Below are positions 1 through 5,671 of a DNA stretch of 5,671 nt, piece after piece (the stretch's first letter is position 1; each line of letters begins with the position of its first letter). The notes beneath the pieces are model-generated. The model had not been told where the DNA came from and ran no database searches. It saw nothing but the letters and a program-made list of their open reading frames with translations. Source of the DNA: a virus. The stretch spans positions 1 through 5,671 of the IMG/VR virus record IMGVR_UViG_3300012973_000440. The stretch is one strand, 5' to 3'. The position numbers and the translations under genes were made by a program.

Positions 1-1527
1 AACTTCATCAATATAATATCTAACTGGTGTGCCATAGGTTGCGGCGACATATAAGATATTATACTCTGAAGCCAAATCATCATATTTGATAATAGCGGTA
101 GAGCTCGCTCCATCAATAATACCGTCTTCATAATACTCTGGTTTATAAGCATTTAGACTCAAAATATCTCGTAATCTTGTTCCACCAATTACATCAGATT
201 CACTTACAGTAATAAGAGTTGTAGCAATCGTGGAATAAGCAGAAGATAACTCTTGTTTATATCTTACGATAATGTTTTTGGTGCGAACCGCTTGAATCTC
301 TTCATAAACAATCATAATAGGAGCTGCTTGAGTTAAAGCATCAAGGCTAACTTCACCGTTGTAAGAGAAGTCTTCATCAAACTGATATCCTTCTGGTCTG
401 TGTGCCGCGATAGGAATAATATCGCTCAATAGAGGATTGTTCATAAACATTAAAGCATTAATATTAACTGTTTCTACTATTGGTTCAGTATTTAAATCTA
501 CAGTGTAATAATGAACAGTAATTGGATACTCAATAGGAGTATAATAAACTTGTAAAACGCCTTGGTTTAATACATCATCATAAGTTTGAAGACTAGACTC
601 ATTATAAAGTTTTCCATCTTCATAAGGAGCTGTGTGATACTTATTAAAATCAATGTTTAAATCAGTAAGAACATTAAAAGCTTCATTAAAACGCTCTTGA
701 TATTTAACCTGGATAGTAGCAGTGGTTAAGCGATACCAATCCGGATAAATACCCGCGTAATATTCTACAAATAAAGTATTAGTGGCTCTGGTGTAAATAA
801 CGCTATAAGCTACTTCCAAAGTGTCGTATGTGATTAATTCATCAGCATTATGGTCTTCAATATAACCAGAATTATAATAAGCCGGTGCTGGACGATAACC
901 TTCTACACTAATAATGTCTCCAAGTTTAGAGCCATCATATAAAGAAGCCTCAGTAACATTGACATACATTGAATTAATAGTTTCAAAAGAACCATCATCT
1001 TTTTCCACTTTGTAAGCTACTAAAACGTTTTTACTGCGGTCCACTTCAATCTTTTCATAGAAAACTGAAATAGGAGAGGCCGCAAGCAGATTTTCAAGAG
1101 TTACTTGTTTATCAAAATTAACTCTTGCTTTATATCCGACAGGGCGATAAGATTGAACATCTACTAATTGTCCAACTGTTTGATATTTTGCTAATTGTGG
1201 TTGTGTAAATGAAACTGTGCGAATTAACATCTCATTAAATATACCGGCACCATTGTCTAAATAATAATTAACCGTAATATTATATGACATTGGAGTATAA
1301 TTAATATTTAAAACCTAAATAGATTGTAAATTCTCATATGTTAATTCTAAATCTCCTAAATTAGTTACAACTCCAGGATTGTAATAATCAGGACGTAATC
1401 TATCAACATCAACGCCCAAATCATTAAATGTAATATTGTCTTTATCGAACATTGAAGCTCGGATAGGCACTGTTACAATTTCAATTAATGAAGTGGTGTC
1501 TTTATAATAGGCTACAGTTAGTTTAAA
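1..1527 (-). repeat. Diverged tandem protein-level repeats (period 81-84 aa) inside the Dit-like gene, with a higher-order ~250-aa three-repeat unit present twice
   Basis: Repeat starts on the minus strand are near 1527, 1284, 1032, 780, 528, 279 and 30. Each repeat opens with a x-V-x-Y-(Y/K) strand (LTVAYY, ITVNYY, VLVAYK, LFVEYY, ITVHYY, IIVRYK, PVRYY). Most contain a (Y/H)-(R/K)-P-x-(G/Y)-Y motif, and each ends in a h-x-V-x-Y strand. Repeats 2-3-4 pair with 5-6-7. For example, KNVLVAYK...GSKLGDIISVEGYRPAPAYY...ITYDTL matches KNIIVRYK...GTRLRDILSLNAYKPEYY...IKYDDL, and LLAASPISVFYEKIEVDRS matches LTQAAPIMIVYEEIQAVRT. Confidence 0.65.
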
Positions 1528-1929
1528 GGCGTTAGTCATATTTGCGTTTGTAGTATAAATTTCACGCTGTCCTTTGGCATAACCACTAGACAAAGTATAT
1601 GATACTACAAAATTACCATTTTTTAACCGAGTTGGCTCTCCTGTGTCAACAATATTAACATCAAAAAAGAAATTTAAATCATCGAATTTAATGGTCGCTT
1701 TTTTAAGCATAGCGGTTAAGCGGCTTATACGTTTAAAAGCCTCTTCCTCGTCCTAGCAAAGCACTAAAAATTCTAATTTAATCTTTTTAAAGCGGTCTTG
1801 CTGACGAATAAAAGTAGGCTGAATGTCTCCATCCAACCACTCTTGGGCCGTGTCTATATCATTACTATATAATACGCGGTCGAAAAGCTAAATGCCAAGA
1901 GTATCTAATTCAATACCGTTTATTAACAT
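1..1929 (-). CDS. Distal tail protein (Dit)-like N-terminal domain fused to tandem ~83-aa MucBP/Ig-like adhesin repeats (probable baseplate adhesin or receptor-binding protein); 3'-partial; needs TAG read as sense
   Basis: ATG 1929-1927 lies 6 nt downstream of AAGGAGG (plus-strand 1936-1942). Hand translation of the minus strand is open for all 643 codons to the window edge, apart from three TAGs (1888-1890, 1753-1755, 1315-1317). The N-terminus MLINGIELDTLGI[TAG]LFDRV...DRFKKIKLEFLVLC[TAG]DEEEAFKRISRLTAMLKKATIKFDDLNFFFDV fits the siphovirus Dit (Sipho_tail) N-domain pattern from memory. Track ORF 1315..1710 is an internal fragment. ATG 1710 and ATG 1290 have no Shine-Dalgarno (SD) site. Confidence 0.7.
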
Positions 1930-1931
1930 TT

Positions 1932-2099
1932 TTAGCCTCCTTGTCTTTGAATTTCAAGTTCGATTTTATTTAATAGAATCGAAGTTGTGTCTTCTTTTGG
2001 AGTAGATGTTTGAGTCATTTTAGCCTATTTGTTTGCGGCTTCTTGTGCGGCCGCACTTAGTTGATTAGATAAAGTATCTAACAATTCTTCATAGTTCAT
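1932..2099 (-). CDS. Small (55 aa) probably helical protein of unknown function, in the position normally held by the tape measure gene
   Basis: ATG 2099-2097 with GGAGG at 2109-2113 (9-nt spacer); it overlaps the upstream TGA as ATGA. TAA at 1934-1932. One in-frame TAG (2025-2027). Sequence: MNYEELLDTLSNQLSAAAQEAANK[TAG]AKMTQTSTPKEDTTSILLNKIELEIQRQGG. No family recognised. Confidence 0.55.
1936..1942 (-). promoter_or_regulatory. Shine-Dalgarno site AAGGAGG for the Dit-like gene
   Basis: Plus-strand CCTCCTT, 6 nt upstream of ATG 1929. Confidence 0.7.
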
Positions 2100-2590
2100 T
2101 CGGTCAAACCTCCAATTTTTAAATTTTCAAAAGTTTGGTTACGTTCTTCAAGATTGCCTATTGTATACCCCAAATCTTTTGTTAGACGAATTAACTAGTC
2201 ATTATCACTACTTACTATAGCTATTTTTACTAAATTTGCTTCGGTTTCTTTTTTCCGAAGATAATTATTGTAAGCCCTCTTAATTTCTTGAGGAGTCATA
2301 GTCATACATTCTGTTGGTGACACGCCTATTTCTCCAACAGCCATAGAATATAACTCTTCAAGCTCTAATAAAGAGGGTGCCTCAGATGGCACCGAAAACA
2401 TTGTTAAATCATTGTTTTCAATAATTTCTTGAATGTCTTCGAATGTCACCCAAGGCTATAAGCTAATTAAAGCACAATATAGATGAAATGCTAAATTATT
2501 CTCTACATTATTTGATTTTTCGTGTAATAGGATTAACCCTTTTAGACCAAATTTGGTCTAAAAAATTTGTTTTTTAGTTTTAAAAATCAT
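2096..2590 (-). CDS. Tail assembly chaperone-like protein (gpG-like N-terminal part plus a possible gpT-like part in the same frame), 164 aa
   Basis: ATG 2590-2588 has only a weak purine-rich SD and overlaps the end of the major tail gene by 11 nt. TGA at 2098-2096. Three in-frame TAGs (2558-2560, 2456-2458, 2195-2197). Sequence: MIFKTKKQIF[TAG]TKFGLKGLILLHEKSNNVENNLAFHLYCALISL[TAG]PWVTFEDIQ...SSDND[TAG]LIRLTKDLGYTIGNLEERNQTFENLKIGGLTE. Its position directly after the major tail gene and the F-G-L-K-x-L-x-x-L / Y-x-A-L pattern are typical of siphovirus chaperones (from memory). Track ORF 2195..2449 (GTG start, no SD) is the middle fragment. Confidence 0.55.
2109..2113 (-). promoter_or_regulatory. 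Shine-Dalgarno site GGAGG for the 55-aa ORF
   Basis: Plus-strand CCTCC, 9 nt upstream of ATG 2099. Confidence 0.65.
2540..2563. repeat. Perfect 24-nt palindrome (potential 10-bp stem with 4-nt loop) at the major tail / chaperone gene junction
   Basis: TTTTAGACCAAATTTGGTCTAAAA is its own reverse complement; every pair 2540/2563 through 2551/2552 was checked. It starts 17 nt downstream (mRNA sense) of the major tail gene stop, lies inside chaperone codons 10-17, and includes that gene's first TAG (2558-2560). Its function is unknown. Confidence 0.5.
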
Positions 2591-2987
2591 TGTAACGTTC
2601 TTTCTCTAGGGGGCCGGTGCCCAATAGCTTAAGATTATATTTAAATTCTTTATTAAATATAGCAGAGGTAGGGAAGTCTACCAATAGAGCAGAACCATTA
2701 TAAGTATTTGAACCAATAGTAAAGGAAACTTTCACAGTTTTATTTTCCATAAAACAATCTTCTAAGGTTTGTAATGCGTCATCGTCAATAACATATAAGC
2801 CTTGGCAAGTAATATTCCAAGTTTTTATACCTGATAGACTTTCGCCCCAGTCTCCATTAATTCTGTTGGTAATATCTATAATTTGAGCTTTTCGTTCTAA
2901 TACAGCTCCTTGTTGACCACCCAGAGGTTTTCCGTCAATGGAAATGATAACATCAATACTTTTTACTAAATTATTGAACTATGTCAT
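2580..2987 (-). CDS. Major tail protein, TP901-1/phi13-like family, 135 aa
   Basis: ATG 2987-2985 with AAGGAGGT at 2996-3003 (8-nt spacer). TAA at 2582-2580. TAG is codon 3 (2979-2981). Verified codon by codon: MT[TAG]FNNLVKSIDVIISIDGKPLGGQQGAVLERKAQIIDITNRINGDWGESLSGIKTWNITCQGLYVIDDDALQTLEDCFMENKTVKVSFTIGSNTYNGSALLVDFPTSAIFNKEFKYNLKLLGTGPLEKERYNDF. The layout G-G-Q-x-x-x-x-L...ID-x-T...W-x-E...G-x-K-(S/T)-W...Y-x-G-x-A...L-x-G-T-G-x-L matches that family from memory. The gene is missing from the standard-code track because of the codon-3 TAG. Confidence 0.8.
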
Positions 2988-3378
2988 CTTCGTTTACCTC
3001 CTTTTGGCTTTGTCCTAGAAGAAAATCGAATACAACTACGCCGTGTTTTTTTACTGGTCCAGTCGACCTATCATCTAAAATTTTAAAGGTCTTTTGATAC
3101 GCATAAAGTAATTCTGGCATATCCGCAACTAAACTTTGTAAATTATTATTTATATCCTCTACAATATCTATGATTTCTAATTCACCATTATAAGTAGAAA
3201 ATATATCTAGTGTTAAACTCACAGCATCGACCTTTAAATCGAAACTATTGAGTTTCGTCGCATTACCTAAACGAAGCATTAACCAAGGAAATTTCTCATT
3301 GTATGTTCCATTATCGGTAATGTTATATTCTAAATCTTTTATTAAAGAATAAAAGCGTTCTTTAATTTTTTTAATCAT
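2971..3378 (-). CDS. Tail terminator / tail completion-like protein, 135 aa
   Basis: Track ORF. ATG 3378-3376 with AAGGAGAG at 3384-3391 (5-nt spacer). TAA at 2973-2971. No TAG. It overlaps the major tail gene start by 17 nt. The call rests on size, position immediately upstream of the major tail gene, and alternating beta-strand-like segments (FPWLMLRLG, VSLTLDIFS, HGVVVFDFLL). It is based on position and pattern only. Confidence 0.5.
   Translation of the reverse strand: MIKKIKERFYSLIKDLEYNITDNGTYNEKFPWLMLRLGNATKLNSFDLKVDAVSLTLDIFSTYNGELEIIDIVEDINNNLQSLVADMPELLYAYQKTFKILDDRSTGPVKKHGVVVFDFLLGQSQKEVNEDDIVQ
2996..3003 (-). promoter_or_regulatory. Shine-Dalgarno site AAGGAGGT for the major tail protein gene
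   Basis: Plus-strand ACCTCCTT, 8 nt upstream of ATG 2987. Confidence 0.75.
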
Positions 3379-3380
3379 TT

Positions 3381-3584
3381 TTACTCTCCTTTCGGAGCAG
3401 GAACTAAAGTATAGGCTTCAATTGTGTCTCGTTTAGTTAGAAATAAAAACTTCACATAAAGATGGTCCTAAACTTGAATTTCTTGCCCGTTTTCATCGGT
3501 TTGAGTAATATAATGAGGAATTGCCCAATCATATACATAACCGGCAGGTGCCTCATATTTAGTCATTCTATTTGAAAAGGCCAT
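3381..3584 (-). CDS. Hypothetical protein, 67 aa
   Basis: ATG 3584-3582 with GGAGGA at 3591-3596 (6-nt spacer). TAA at 3383-3381. One in-frame TAG (3468-3470). Sequence: MAFSNRMTKYEAPAGYVYDWAIPHYITQTDENGQEIQV[TAG]DHLYVKFLFLTKRDTIEAYTLVPAPKGE. No family recognised. Absent from the standard-code track. Confidence 0.6.
3384..3391 (-). promoter_or_regulatory. Shine-Dalgarno site AAGGAGAG for the tail-terminator-like gene
   Basis: Plus-strand CTCTCCTT, 5 nt upstream of ATG 3378. Confidence 0.65.
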
Positions 3585-3590
3585 TTCGGT

Positions 3591-3596
3591 TCCTCC
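3591..3596 (-). promoter_or_regulatory. Shine-Dalgarno site GGAGGA for the 67-aa ORF
   Basis: Plus-strand TCCTCC, 6 nt upstream of ATG 3584. Confidence 0.7.
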
Positions 3597-4211
3597 TTAA
3601 GTTATAATAATATCTGGGACATAGGGCACACCGTGGCCCCCGCCGCCCCTAAGACCACCACTTCCACTTCGGAAATCGTGTCCTGTAATAGCTTGAATAA
3701 AAGTCACAATAAGAGCAACAACGATTGCCGCCAATATCATTCCAACGAAACCGGCCAAGCCACCGCCTCGTCCGAAGCCTAAACCAGGGCCTTGCCCTCG
3801 TCCGCCTCGCTCCATTGCCATACGCTATTCTTCTTCCTCGGCTTCAAGAAGCATTTCTTCCTCGGCTTGAGCTTCATCCACAGCCTAATCCCATAAAGGT
3901 GCGGCCGCCGCTAATGCCGCCGCAATGGCTGGCTCAAAGTAGGGCTAAGAAGGACAGCACCAAGTGCCATACTCTACATATTGAGCATATTCGCAAATGG
4001 TTTCAGCACGACAGCTGGTCTCATCACAGTCAGCTTCCAAGGTAGAACGGAGATAGCCTGTGTCTACTGGCACAAGCTATCTCGATACCTCTAAAAAAGT
4101 TTCTACAAAAGCTTGACAGCCTAAGCTATAATCAGGATAAATATTATATTCTTCTGTGGAATCAATATAGCCAAAATCATCGACGACATCAAATTCACAC
4201 AAAAGTCCCAT
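3597..4211 (-). CDS. HK97 gp10-family neck/tail-completion protein with an acidic linker and a Gly/Arg-rich transmembrane C-terminal extension, 204 aa
   Basis: ATG 4211-4209 (TAATG overlap with the upstream stop; AAGGAG at 4223-4228). TAA at 3599-3597. Four in-frame TAGs (4077-4079, 3945-3947, 3885-3887, 3825-3827). The segment ...FLEVSR[TAG]LVPVDTGYLRSTLEADCDETSCRAETICEYAQYVEYGTWCCPS[TAG]PYFEPAIAAA... carries the P-V-D-T-G-x-L-R-x-S ... Y-A-x-Y-V-E-(F/Y)-G-T ... P-(F/Y)-x-x-P-A signature of the HK97 gp10 family (PF04883/TIGR01725, from memory). The C-terminal 74 aa equal track ORF 3597..3821. Confidence 0.75.
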
Positions 4212-4453
4212 TATTTATGATACTCCTTCAGTTCGTGTATTTCATTTTCAATATTTTCTATGTGTTCTTCTACAACACTTTCTTTGCGTTCAAGCTCATA
4301 AGTTCTTTCAATTAGATTATTGTGTTTATTTACTTTTTGCTCTAATTGTTCTAATCGATAATTAATTAATTTGCTTGAGGCGATTACGCCAATGGCAGAA
4401 CCAATAATAGTTCCAAGAAATCCAATTAGGGCAATTATAATACCTTCTGTCAT
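4211..4453 (-). CDS. Small membrane-anchored coiled-coil protein, 80 aa, function unknown
   Basis: Track ORF. ATG 4453-4451 with AAGGAGGT at 4463-4470 (9-nt spacer). TAA at 4213-4211. No TAG. An N-terminal hydrophobic helix (GIIIALIGFLGTIIGSAIGVIASS) is followed by a charged heptad-like segment (LEQLEQKVNKHNNLIERTYELERKESVVEEHIENIENEIHELKEY). Confidence 0.7.
   Translation of the reverse strand: MTEGIIIALIGFLGTIIGSAIGVIASSKLINYRLEQLEQKVNKHNNLIERTYELERKESVVEEHIENIENEIHELKEYHK
4223..4228 (-). promoter_or_regulatory. Shine-Dalgarno site AAGGAG for the HK97 gp10-like gene
   Basis: Plus-strand CTCCTT, 11 nt upstream of ATG 4211. Confidence 0.55.
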
Positions 4454-4462
4454 TTTTGCTTT

Positions 4463-4470
4463 ACCTCCTT
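4463..4470 (-). promoter_or_regulatory. Shine-Dalgarno site AAGGAGGT for the membrane coiled-coil gene
   Basis: Plus-strand ACCTCCTT, 9 nt upstream of ATG 4453; it overlaps the upstream TAA stop. Confidence 0.75.
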
Positions 4471-4999
4471 ATCCAGCTATATAGATGAAGACGCCATTTG
4501 GGCCTACCTAATAATTACTTTTACCAGTAACGGTAATCGTTTTTGCTTCAGTATCGACCACATATGTTACTGATGGACTTAGGTCTCCAAATACGCTTCC
4601 GTCAGAATATCCAGTTAAGTTTTTTAATCCACTACTAATCGAATTACTGCCGTATTTTCTGGTCTATGCCGCTCCTTTAGAAGAATCTAATAGAGGAGAA
4701 AAAGTATAATAATCAGATTTTCCAGCGGTTGTTGACGTAGAATTATAACTTCCTGCTAAAAATAACATCCAATTCGCTTTCTATACATCAGATATATAAG
4801 AAGATACGTCAAATGTATAGGTATAAGCTCCATTGGCCGTGCCTGTAATAGCAGCCCAATTTAATTCACCACCAGAAGGTAGATTAGTAATAGCTGTTGC
4901 CATATCCAAAGGGCCAAGTAAATCTGTAGTTCCATTTTTTTCTCGAATTGCGTTGCCAATAGATGACAATGTGCTTTCTTCTATAAATACTTTACTCAT
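4469..4999 (-). CDS. Fiber-like structural protein, 176 aa
   Basis: ATG 4999-4997 (TAATG overlap with the upstream stop; GAGGAGGG at 5009-5016). TAA at 4471-4469. Three in-frame TAGs (4781-4783, 4664-4666, 4508-4510). The N-terminus ESTLSSIGNAIREKNGTTDLLGPLDMATAITNL resembles the L-x-x-I-(A/G)-x-A-I-R-x-K-x-G ... M-A-x-x-I motif that I recall at the N-termini of phage fiber or receptor-binding-type proteins. The C-terminal part is rich in Ser, Thr, Gly and Tyr. Track ORF 4781..4999 is the N-terminal fragment. Confidence 0.6.
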
Positions 5000-5671
5000 T
5001 AGTATTGACCCTCCTCTGCGTTAGGATAGGTAGATAAAGCCGCAGTAATTAACGCGTTCACCTAATCTGCGGTTTGATACCCTTTATTATCAATTTCATT
5101 TTTTGTATAATAATTTGATAAATTAACACGAGTAGAACCAACTTGTTCAAAGCTACCATTTATATACAGATATTCATCATAATAATCCATAAAATTACTA
5201 CTATTATTTACTGGAAGCAAATAAATAGTATTGGAATTAGCTGCTTCTCCTGGTAGATTCTAAACAATTTCAACATTAAAACCAGGAGGTAGAGAGGCTA
5301 ACACCTCTAAAACAATTTCCGTCTTGTCGGCGTCTGTCCAGTAATCCGTTCCTCGAACAGGAGTATAACCGTTAGGGCCGGCCGGACCCTACACCCCTTC
5401 TTCCCCTCGAGGGCCAATCGGTCCCTATGGACCTACTTCTCCCTGAATGCCTTGTGGACCTTGGGGACCCGTATCACCCTTGGGCCCTTCAGGTCCAATG
5501 GGACCTTGAGGGCCTATATCTCCTTTAATACCTTGCTCGCCTTGAGGACCTTGAGGTCCAGTTAAACCAGTTTCTCCCTTAGGGCCAGCCGGACCTTGAG
5601 GACCTTGCTCACCAATCGGGCCTTGGGGCCCTTCAGGACCCACTAAAGCCGCGATATCAACCCAAGGGGAA
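4999..5671 (-). CDS. Collagen-like triple-helix repeat fiber protein; 5'-partial (start lies beyond the window)
   Basis: The frame is open from the window edge to TAA 5001-4999, apart from four TAGs (5425-5427, 5389-5391, 5260-5262, 5062-5064). It has 30 uninterrupted Gly-X-Y triplets, followed by [20 protein letters not shown]... and ...[34 protein letters not shown]..., a non-collagenous C-terminal part typical of phage collagen-like fibers (from memory). The track's GTG start at 5643 is internal; the frame continues upstream as [13 protein letters not shown]. Confidence 0.85.
5009..5016 (-). promoter_or_regulatory. Shine-Dalgarno site GAGGAGGG for the fiber-like gene
   Basis: Plus-strand CCCTCCTC, 9 nt upstream of ATG 4999. 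Confidence 0.7.
5368..5640 (-). repeat. Collagen Gly-X-Y tract, 30 consecutive triplets plus a closing Gly
   Basis: [71 protein letters not shown][TAG] [11 protein letters not shown][TAG] GPA GPN G. The periodicity is unbroken only if both TAGs are translated. Confidence 0.9.

Follow-up and report, generated by a model that had tools for sequence, protein, structure and literature searches.

Reassignment of the amber codon TAG to glutamine (Gln, Q) is established for crAss-like phages, Lak phages and the clades described by Borges et al. (bioRxiv 10.1101/2021.08.26.457843). For crAss-like phages, metaproteomic evidence for this genetic code (code 15) is reported by Peters et al. (PMC9523058). 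TAG-recoded phages of Firmicutes can be small, with genomes of 22±3 kb for Topaz and about 34 kb for Garnet and Amethyst, and Topaz is temperate, the one prophage analysed from an Oscillospiraceae sp. having an integrase and a host tRNA-Thr at its boundary (bioRxiv 10.1101/2021.08.26.457843). A suppressor tRNA was detected in only about 40% of the genomes recoded at TAG, and glutaminylation of TAG suppressors is cited by the same authors (bioRxiv 10.1101/2021.08.26.457843). The genetic code varies within clades, TAG depletion has been proposed as a precursor of recoding, and recoding itself has been proposed as a lysogeny switch, by which lytic and structural genes would not be expressed before amber suppression sets in (bioRxiv 10.1101/2021.08.26.457843). 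Here we analyse a stretch of uncultivated viral DNA, IMG/VR record IMGVR_UViG_3300012973_000440, positions 1 to 5,671 (5,671 nt, 36% GC; hereafter the window), in which TAG appears to be used in this way.

The window is very probably the neck-to-tail part of the structural operon of a siphophage of ~25.6 kb, with a probable Bacillota host, in which UAG would be translated as glutamine and termination would be left to UAA and UGA only. At the level of its sequence, it qualifies as DNA of a code-15 phage. It shares with such phages in-frame TAGs in structural genes, Gln opposite TAG in homologues, the disuse of TAG as a terminator, a low GC content, a preference for TAA stops and a code state that varies among close relatives. 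In contrast to them, its lineage is very small and almost entirely structural, with hardly any standard-code early module. Unlike many of them, it encodes no suppressor tRNA, release factor 2 (RF2) or tRNA synthetase, which are frequent but non-defining features. The TAG-to-Gln recoding described here is real but of a sort already known from gut phages. What is unusual is a small, well-sampled, mixed-code family without visible decoding machinery, and a giant protein with an N-terminus like that of a distal tail protein (Dit) in the slot of the tape measure.

Under the standard bacterial code (table 11), the minus strand of the window yields about a dozen short open reading frames (ORFs). When only TAA and TGA are taken as stops, the same strand tiles into 10 consecutive genes (G1 to G10, Table 1) with no frameshift. 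The 1,891 minus-strand codons include no in-frame TAA or TGA and 20 in-frame TAGs, each of which had been located correctly in a preliminary description of this DNA that proposed TAG as a sense codon. The remaining signals reported there were likewise recovered. Specifically, the nine gene ends are eight TAA and one TGA, never TAG, and several of them overlap the next start as TAATG or ATGA. A GGAG or GGAGG site lies 5-11 nt upstream of eight of the nine merged-gene starts, the exception being G8, and no site of this type precedes the starts of the table-11 fragments at 1710, 2449, 5643 and 1290. A comparison of the two codes had been suggested as a check for the full contig. In the window, coding density is 68% with table 11 and 99.4% with TAG as sense, and genes have a mean length of 107 and 189 aa, respectively.

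Treating TGA or TAA rather than TAG as sense did not merge the window genes, and these alternative reassignments were therefore rejected. Furthermore, TAG makes up 24% of the stop triplets (88/370) in the two off-frames of the same genes. Given this share, the probability that all 20 in-frame stops would be TAG is P ~3e-13, which excludes chance. Among the window's Gln codons, TAG (20) stands beside CAA (57) and CAG (6), such that TAG supplies about a quarter of the total and has largely displaced CAG. The preliminary description also warned that standard annotation would be badly wrong. This is so for table 11, which shatters the operon and hides a tail protein of ~2,900 aa, whereas code-15-aware gene calling recovers both. 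However, the public protein collection already holds read-through gene models that equal the merged genes, and renders all 12 TAGs of the giant protein P0001 as Q (12/12).

P0001 is the closest homologue of G10 (93% identity) and is carried by L009, an ENA contig of 25,626 nt. An exact terminal repeat of 55 nt and a capsid gene that becomes whole when the two ends are joined identify this contig as a complete, circular genome of 25,571 bp. It has 31 genes on one strand, is about 95% coding and contains 60 in-frame TAGs, which occur in 17 of the 31 genes and in packaging, head, tail and HNH genes alike. Of 30 gene ends in L009, none is TAG. An alignment-based scan of IMG/VR uncovered 29 further family loci, on contigs of 24.4-27.2 kb where complete. 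Nothing was found by a single-protein IMG/VR scan with G10, by a search of IMG/VR for an exact 37-mer from the window, or by megablast of the window against GenBank phages.

Within homology blocks of about 30 relatives, TAGs number in the hundreds and other stops are nearly absent, a pattern opposite to the decay that the preliminary description had named as a possible refutation. Per 1,000 codons, family members have between 0 and 11-14 TAGs, the densest being L017, L036, L041 and L042 and those with none being L014/L034, L015, L021, L022 and L040. In a rough neighbour-joining tree, the zero-TAG members fall in at least three places among the recoded ones, and one phage family thus mixes standard-code members with recoded ones such as L009, L017, L036 and L037. 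TAG serves as a terminator in only 0-1 genes of each zero-TAG member, which matches the depletion proposed by Borges et al. to precede recoding.

Because homologues place glutamine opposite TAG, the codon most likely encodes Gln in the window, as in code 15. Across the family, about 555 non-TAG positions align with the TAG sites of L009; Q occupies 228 of them (CAA 149, CAG 79), ahead of K (55) and E (39). In a likelihood comparison based on substitutions tabulated within the family, Q leads the next residue by 447 nats family-wide, and by 146 nats in the reciprocal direction. We also compared the TAGs of the window phage, taken as those of the window genes plus the rest of G10 in the contig L003, with five standard-code relatives only. 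Q, mostly as CAA, lies opposite in 22 of 66 cases against a Q background of 3%, and it is the commonest partner at these TAGs. This tabulation, which the preliminary description had called for, agrees with the glutamine precedent that it invoked.

Individual sites point in the same direction. Residue 89 of G4 is Q in 19 of 24 relatives and TAG in the other five. Residue 42 of the L009 TerL, next to Walker A, is encoded by TAG; among about 70 terminases from standard-code prophages of Bacillota, 58 have Q at this position. The collagen repeat of the window contains two TAGs, both at the Y position of G-X-Y, which is taken by Q more often than by any other residue. Although the counts are not independent phylogenetically, all lines of evidence agree.

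The TAGs are also reproducible. The exact G6 protein is present on six public contigs from six samples, and these six independently assembled contigs (five from ENA samples, one from Logan SRR6059974) match the window at 99.3-99.98% identity. Every window TAG covered by any of the six contigs is present in that contig. Because the TAGs recur in independently assembled contigs, the assembly errors that had been raised as a possible refutation can be excluded. These strains differ at 44 sites, of which 37 are third codon positions in the merged frames and 36 are synonymous, including sites downstream of TAGs. Eight codon calls (six distinct changes) are non-synonymous. Furthermore, the giant gene begun by G10 stays open in L003 without TAA or TGA for its whole known length (Table 1). 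Decay as well as assembly error is excluded by this combination of reproducible TAGs, mostly synonymous variants and a long open frame. TAG in the window is a sense codon under purifying selection.

How TAG is decoded is less apparent, as the decoding machinery expected from the preliminary description did not turn up. ARAGORN was run on the window and on 42 loci, and none of them yielded a tRNA with a CUA anticodon (tRNA-CUA). The only tRNA in these loci is a tRNA-Thr(CGT) in the recoded relative L027, and the window and L009 have none. Searches with Rfam (E<=1 for the whole L009 genome, E<=10 for its intergenic-rich region) returned nothing tRNA-like. Relaxed ARAGORN settings (lowered thresholds, introns) produced 35-85 spurious calls per genome, which were rejected as noise; the CUA candidates among them were discarded because they lie at non-conserved positions inside genes and also occur in standard-code members. 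The suggested searches for RF2 and glutaminyl-tRNA synthetase (GlnRS) genes fared no better, as neither a release factor nor a tRNA synthetase was found among L009 genes by Pfam, PHROG or the precomputed Pfam annotation of the protein collection. Finally, when gene content was compared between recoded and standard-code members, no gene turned out to be shared by all of the former and missing from the latter.

Because L009 is complete and about 95% coding and has no detected decoder, the decoder would most likely act in trans. Most simply, a Gln-accepting amber-suppressor tRNA might be supplied by the host or a co-resident element, and the alternative source would be a non-canonical RNA that escaped detection on the phage. 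Escherichia coli supE is an example of classical amber suppression by tRNA-Gln(CUA). A supE-like tRNA would be the simplest way to insert Gln at UAG via the host GlnRS, but none was found on the phage. It is possible, if rather doubtful, that this lineage lacks code-change machinery of any kind and depends on efficient UAG-to-Gln translation, through as many as 33 TAGs in one gene, by its host or a co-resident element. If so, some gut or rumen Bacillota would possess a natural and so far unrecognised amber suppression or down-regulation of release factor 1 (RF1), and the TAG load of close relatives (0 to 14 per 1,000 codons) would track a host trait. The family bears on a question left by Borges et al., namely how TAG is decoded in recoded phages that lack a suppressor tRNA. 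With about 30 almost fully annotated genomes of ~25 kb and both codes side by side, a hidden factor has little room, and the family offers a convenient system for experiments.

A Bacillota-type host, as put forward in the preliminary description, is suggested by the nearest terminases, the GGAGG sites and the low GC content. The nearest TerL proteins of GenBank phages belong to Bacillus and Clostridium phages (48-49% identity). Aligning TerL to GTDB genomes retrieved relatives of <=52% identity in Bacillota and a few other metagenome-assembled genomes. These relatives, which include prophages of Clostridium, Oscillospiraceae, Lactobacillus and other Bacillota, share at most eight genes with the family. 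A scan of 185,579 GTDB species genomes with an alignment of the giant protein yielded no relatives and hence pointed to neither a prophage nor a host.

Several considerations weigh against our interpretation of the window as code-15 DNA from a phage of Bacillota. First, the case for Gln comes from alignments, and shared ancestry inflates their counts. Second, the absence of a tRNA is shown for the complete relative L009, and the window itself is a fragment. Third, supply of the suppressor in trans is an argument from absence, because the two patterns with which the 185,579 GTDB species genomes were searched revealed no family member and hence no host. Lastly, the sequence contexts of TAG are biased only mildly and say little on competition with RF1. 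Family-wide, C is clearly depleted just 5' of an in-frame TAG (6% of cases versus 15-20% for CAA or CAG), which amounts to avoidance of CTAG, and T is mildly depleted at position +4; common descent inflates these counts as well.

An explanation that we regard as unlikely is that the host itself reads UAG as sense or lacks effective RF1, in which case the phage would simply share the code of its host and no switch would be involved. The lack of a tRNA-CUA, a release factor or a recoding-specific gene in L009 or any relative is consistent with this idea. So is the spread of TAG over packaging, head, tail and HNH genes, as well as its rarity as a terminator even in zero-TAG relatives. However, TAG is strongly avoided in capsid and scaffold genes and absent from the integrase of L027, members with either code are intermingled within a single family, and we know of no bacterium in which UAG is a general sense codon. 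Moreover, only 17 of 31 L009 genes contain TAG, whereas recoding is reported to affect about 90% of the genes of phages that have code 25 in common with their host, and 26-71% in phages of standard-code hosts (bioRxiv 10.1101/2021.08.26.457843). Published Topaz and Garnet prophages also sit in standard-code bacteria (bioRxiv 10.1101/2021.08.26.457843).

The uneven use of TAG bears on a second alternative. Gene-wise TAG shares were computed family-wide, and the corresponding L009 genes are g30, g31/g01, g14, g29 and g26. TAG accounts for 17% of Gln codons in recoded genomes overall, for 2% in the scaffold and the N-terminal part of the capsid, and for 8% in the C-terminal part of the capsid. 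The share rises to 30% in TerL, and the minor head protein and the G8 family reach 43-48%, the latter being the most TAG-rich gene family of the group (48%). TAG behaves like a costly or rare codon. Because the genes with the highest expression (capsid, scaffold) avoid it and those for low-copy proteins are enriched in it, its decoding would seem to be less efficient than that of ordinary codons.

The same enrichment in low-copy and depletion in high-copy proteins, together with the failure to find a suppressor, could be taken to mean that the TAGs are leaky stops, at which a low level of near-cognate readthrough by ordinary tRNA-Gln throttles output, with no dedicated suppressor. We judge this to be quite improbable. 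The giant gene has 9-12 TAGs in the window lineage and 33 in L017 (0 in L015 and L021), and decoding must be efficient, close to complete per codon, for such a gene. If readthrough were 50% at each codon, a gene with 12 TAGs would give rise to full-length product in about 0.02% of cases. In addition, the essential single-copy TerL has seven TAGs, one of them at the invariant Gln next to Walker A.

That TAG encodes some other amino acid, such as pyrrolysine, Lys, Glu or Tyr, is hardly probable at all. In its favour, K and E are the next commonest partners opposite TAG, and some TAG sites are variable or have G, T or P opposite. However, Q is usually substituted by K and E, and Q comes first in both directions of the likelihood comparison and is enriched ~7-fold or more over its 3% background. 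CAA, at two mutational steps from TAG, is the commonest aligned codon, and the conserved-Gln sites in G4 and TerL are TAG-encoded. A decaying prophage or a sequencing or assembly artefact, with the TAGs as nonsense mutations or errors, is suggested only by the fragmented look under table 11 and is refuted by the intact frames, the identical TAGs in six assemblies, the 36 synonymous versus 8 non-synonymous codon calls, the near-exclusive use of TAG among in-frame stops of about 30 relatives, and the many family contigs of 24-27 kb, of which the one checked is circular.

The family resembles Topaz as it has been characterized in print. L009 is circular and at 25.6 kb lies at the upper edge of the Topaz size range, its structural genes combine TAG-to-Gln recoding with an arrangement on one strand, and its relatives are of Bacillota type. 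In L027, a complete tRNA-Thr gene stands beside a TAG-free tyrosine integrase gene (Table 1), which is reminiscent of the boundary of the Topaz prophage. Unlike Topaz, L009, the closest complete relative of the window, has no integrase; one is also encoded by the standard-code member L015. A TAG-free integrase in a recoded genome fits the published lysogeny-switch idea, under which the recoded genes of temperate relatives may stay silent until amber suppression becomes available.

Table 1. Predicted genes of the window and selected features of its relatives. TAG positions are those at which the corresponding plus-strand CTA triplets begin.
Sequence	Feature	Coordinates	Strand	TAGs	TAG positions	Product and remarks
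Window	G1	4999..5671	minus	4	5425, 5389, 5260, 5062	3' part of collagen-like tail or head fibre gene, cut by window end; G-X-Y repeats, then C-terminal domain; stop TAA at 4999
Window	G2	4469..4999	minus	3	4781, 4664, 4508	176 aa; no family; stop TAA
Window	G3	4211..4453	minus	0		80 aa; N-terminal transmembrane helix and coiled coil; XhlA-like
Window	G4	3597..4211	minus	4	4077, 3945 (residue 89), 3885, 3825	204 aa; HK97-gp10/neck-like N-terminal domain, Gly-rich segment, transmembrane helix
Window	G5	3381..3584	minus	1	3468	67 aa; no family
Window	G6	2971..3378	minus	0		135 aa; tail terminator / tail completion protein
Window	G7	2580..2987	minus	1	2979 (codon 3)	135 aa; major tail tube protein
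Window	G8	2096..2590	minus	3	2558, 2456, 2195	164 aa; tail-chaperone position; no family
Window	G9	1932..2099	minus	1	2025	55 aa; no family; ATG overlaps G8 stop (ATGA)
Window	G10	1..1929	minus	3	1888, 1753, 1315	first 643 codons of giant gene
L003	giant gene	3761-10936		9		at least 2,392 codons; no TAA or TGA
L009	P0001	7768-16605		12		2,945 aa; 8.8 kb, a third of the 25.6-kb genome
L027	tRNA-Thr(CGT)	20824-20899				complete
L027	tyrosine integrase	21192-22142		0		
L015	integrase	11203-12099				standard-code member

Family matches assign the window genes to the neck and tail of a siphophage, and the structural operon predicted in the preliminary description was found with its collagen-like fibre, XhlA-like protein, neck protein, tail terminator and tube. 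G1 matches Pfam Collagen (5.7e-15) and PHROG tail fibre families (down to 1.9e-35). G3 matches PF10779 XhlA (6e-5, below the gathering score) and phrog_1863 (5e-14), and G4 has a weak match to phrog_5, tail completion/Neck1 (0.0027). The assignments of G6 and G7 come from phrog_176 (5e-9) and PF11367 (2e-4) for the former and from PF06199 Phage_tail_2 (5e-13) and phrog_1407 (5e-23) for the latter. G2 has no Pfam or PHROG match; it starts at a TAATG that overlaps the G1 stop, has GGAGG upstream, and shares its N-terminal ~80 aa with a 461-aa protein of L009. It is probably a fibre-associated protein. Pfam and PHROG gave no family for G5, G8 and G9.

G8 is the only window gene to end in TGA, and together with G9 it sits in the place of the tail chaperone pair, for which a programmed frameshift is usual. 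There is an 11-nt overlap between G7 and G8 (2580-2590), and the G8 stop and G9 start overlap as ATGA (2096-2099). G3 and G4 (3597-4453, minus strand), both with a transmembrane helix, sit among head-tail joining genes.

The giant protein begun by G10 has 241 homologues of about 1,900-2,960 aa. Its Dit-like N-terminal region of ~160 aa is followed by many repeats of ~85 aa with an ITVNYY motif. A structure model was made with AlphaFold2 from the N-terminus of P0001, which is 93% identical to the window protein. The model (pLDDT 80) has Foldseek matches to the baseplates of TP901-1, p2 and NF5, and this region is thus predicted to fold like a siphophage Dit. No match to the giant protein was found in Pfam, among PDB sequences (profile search) or in GenBank phage records. 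The protein, with its β-rich repeats, fills the slot where the tape measure gene is expected, and no tape measure family match was found anywhere in complete L009.

The tail module otherwise resembles that of SPP1- and TP901-1-type phages, with a neck protein, tail terminator, tube and two small genes, and with SPP1_Dit and Tal downstream in L009. An SPP1-type portal and Terminase_3 in L009 are further points of likeness to SPP1-type phages. In contrast to such modules, the tape-measure slot is taken by the protein of ~2,900 aa with its Dit-like N-terminus and β-rich repeats. The head part of L009 comprises small and large terminase subunits, the portal, a minor head protein, scaffold, capsid, connectors and fibres. 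The genes that correspond to the window are followed by SPP1_Dit, Tal (Prophage_tail), an HNH endonuclease, a helix-turn-helix (HTH) protein, a winged-helix protein and a few small ORFs.

The complete L009 genome has no gene for a polymerase, a helicase, a primase or an integrase, and its replication module is extremely reduced. Its non-structural genes lie at 18113-20266 and comprise the HTH gene, the HNH gene just upstream of the terminase genes, a gene for a 209-aa protein and three small ORFs. The 209-aa protein has a weak winged-helix match (Rep3_N/ScpB-like). No endolysin or holin was recognised anywhere in L009, and a promoter and terminator scan of this genome performed no better than on shuffled sequences.

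The fibre region is mosaic between the window (4469-5671) and L009 (1505-5033), two genomes that are otherwise 93-99% identical. In the window, the collagen gene is fused to a C-terminal domain and followed by the 176-aa G2. The corresponding part of L009 encodes a 618-aa collagen protein, a separate 89-aa protein that matches the C-terminus of G1, and the 461-aa protein whose first ~80 aa correspond to G2. Several assemblies end inside the collagen repeat, as the window does.

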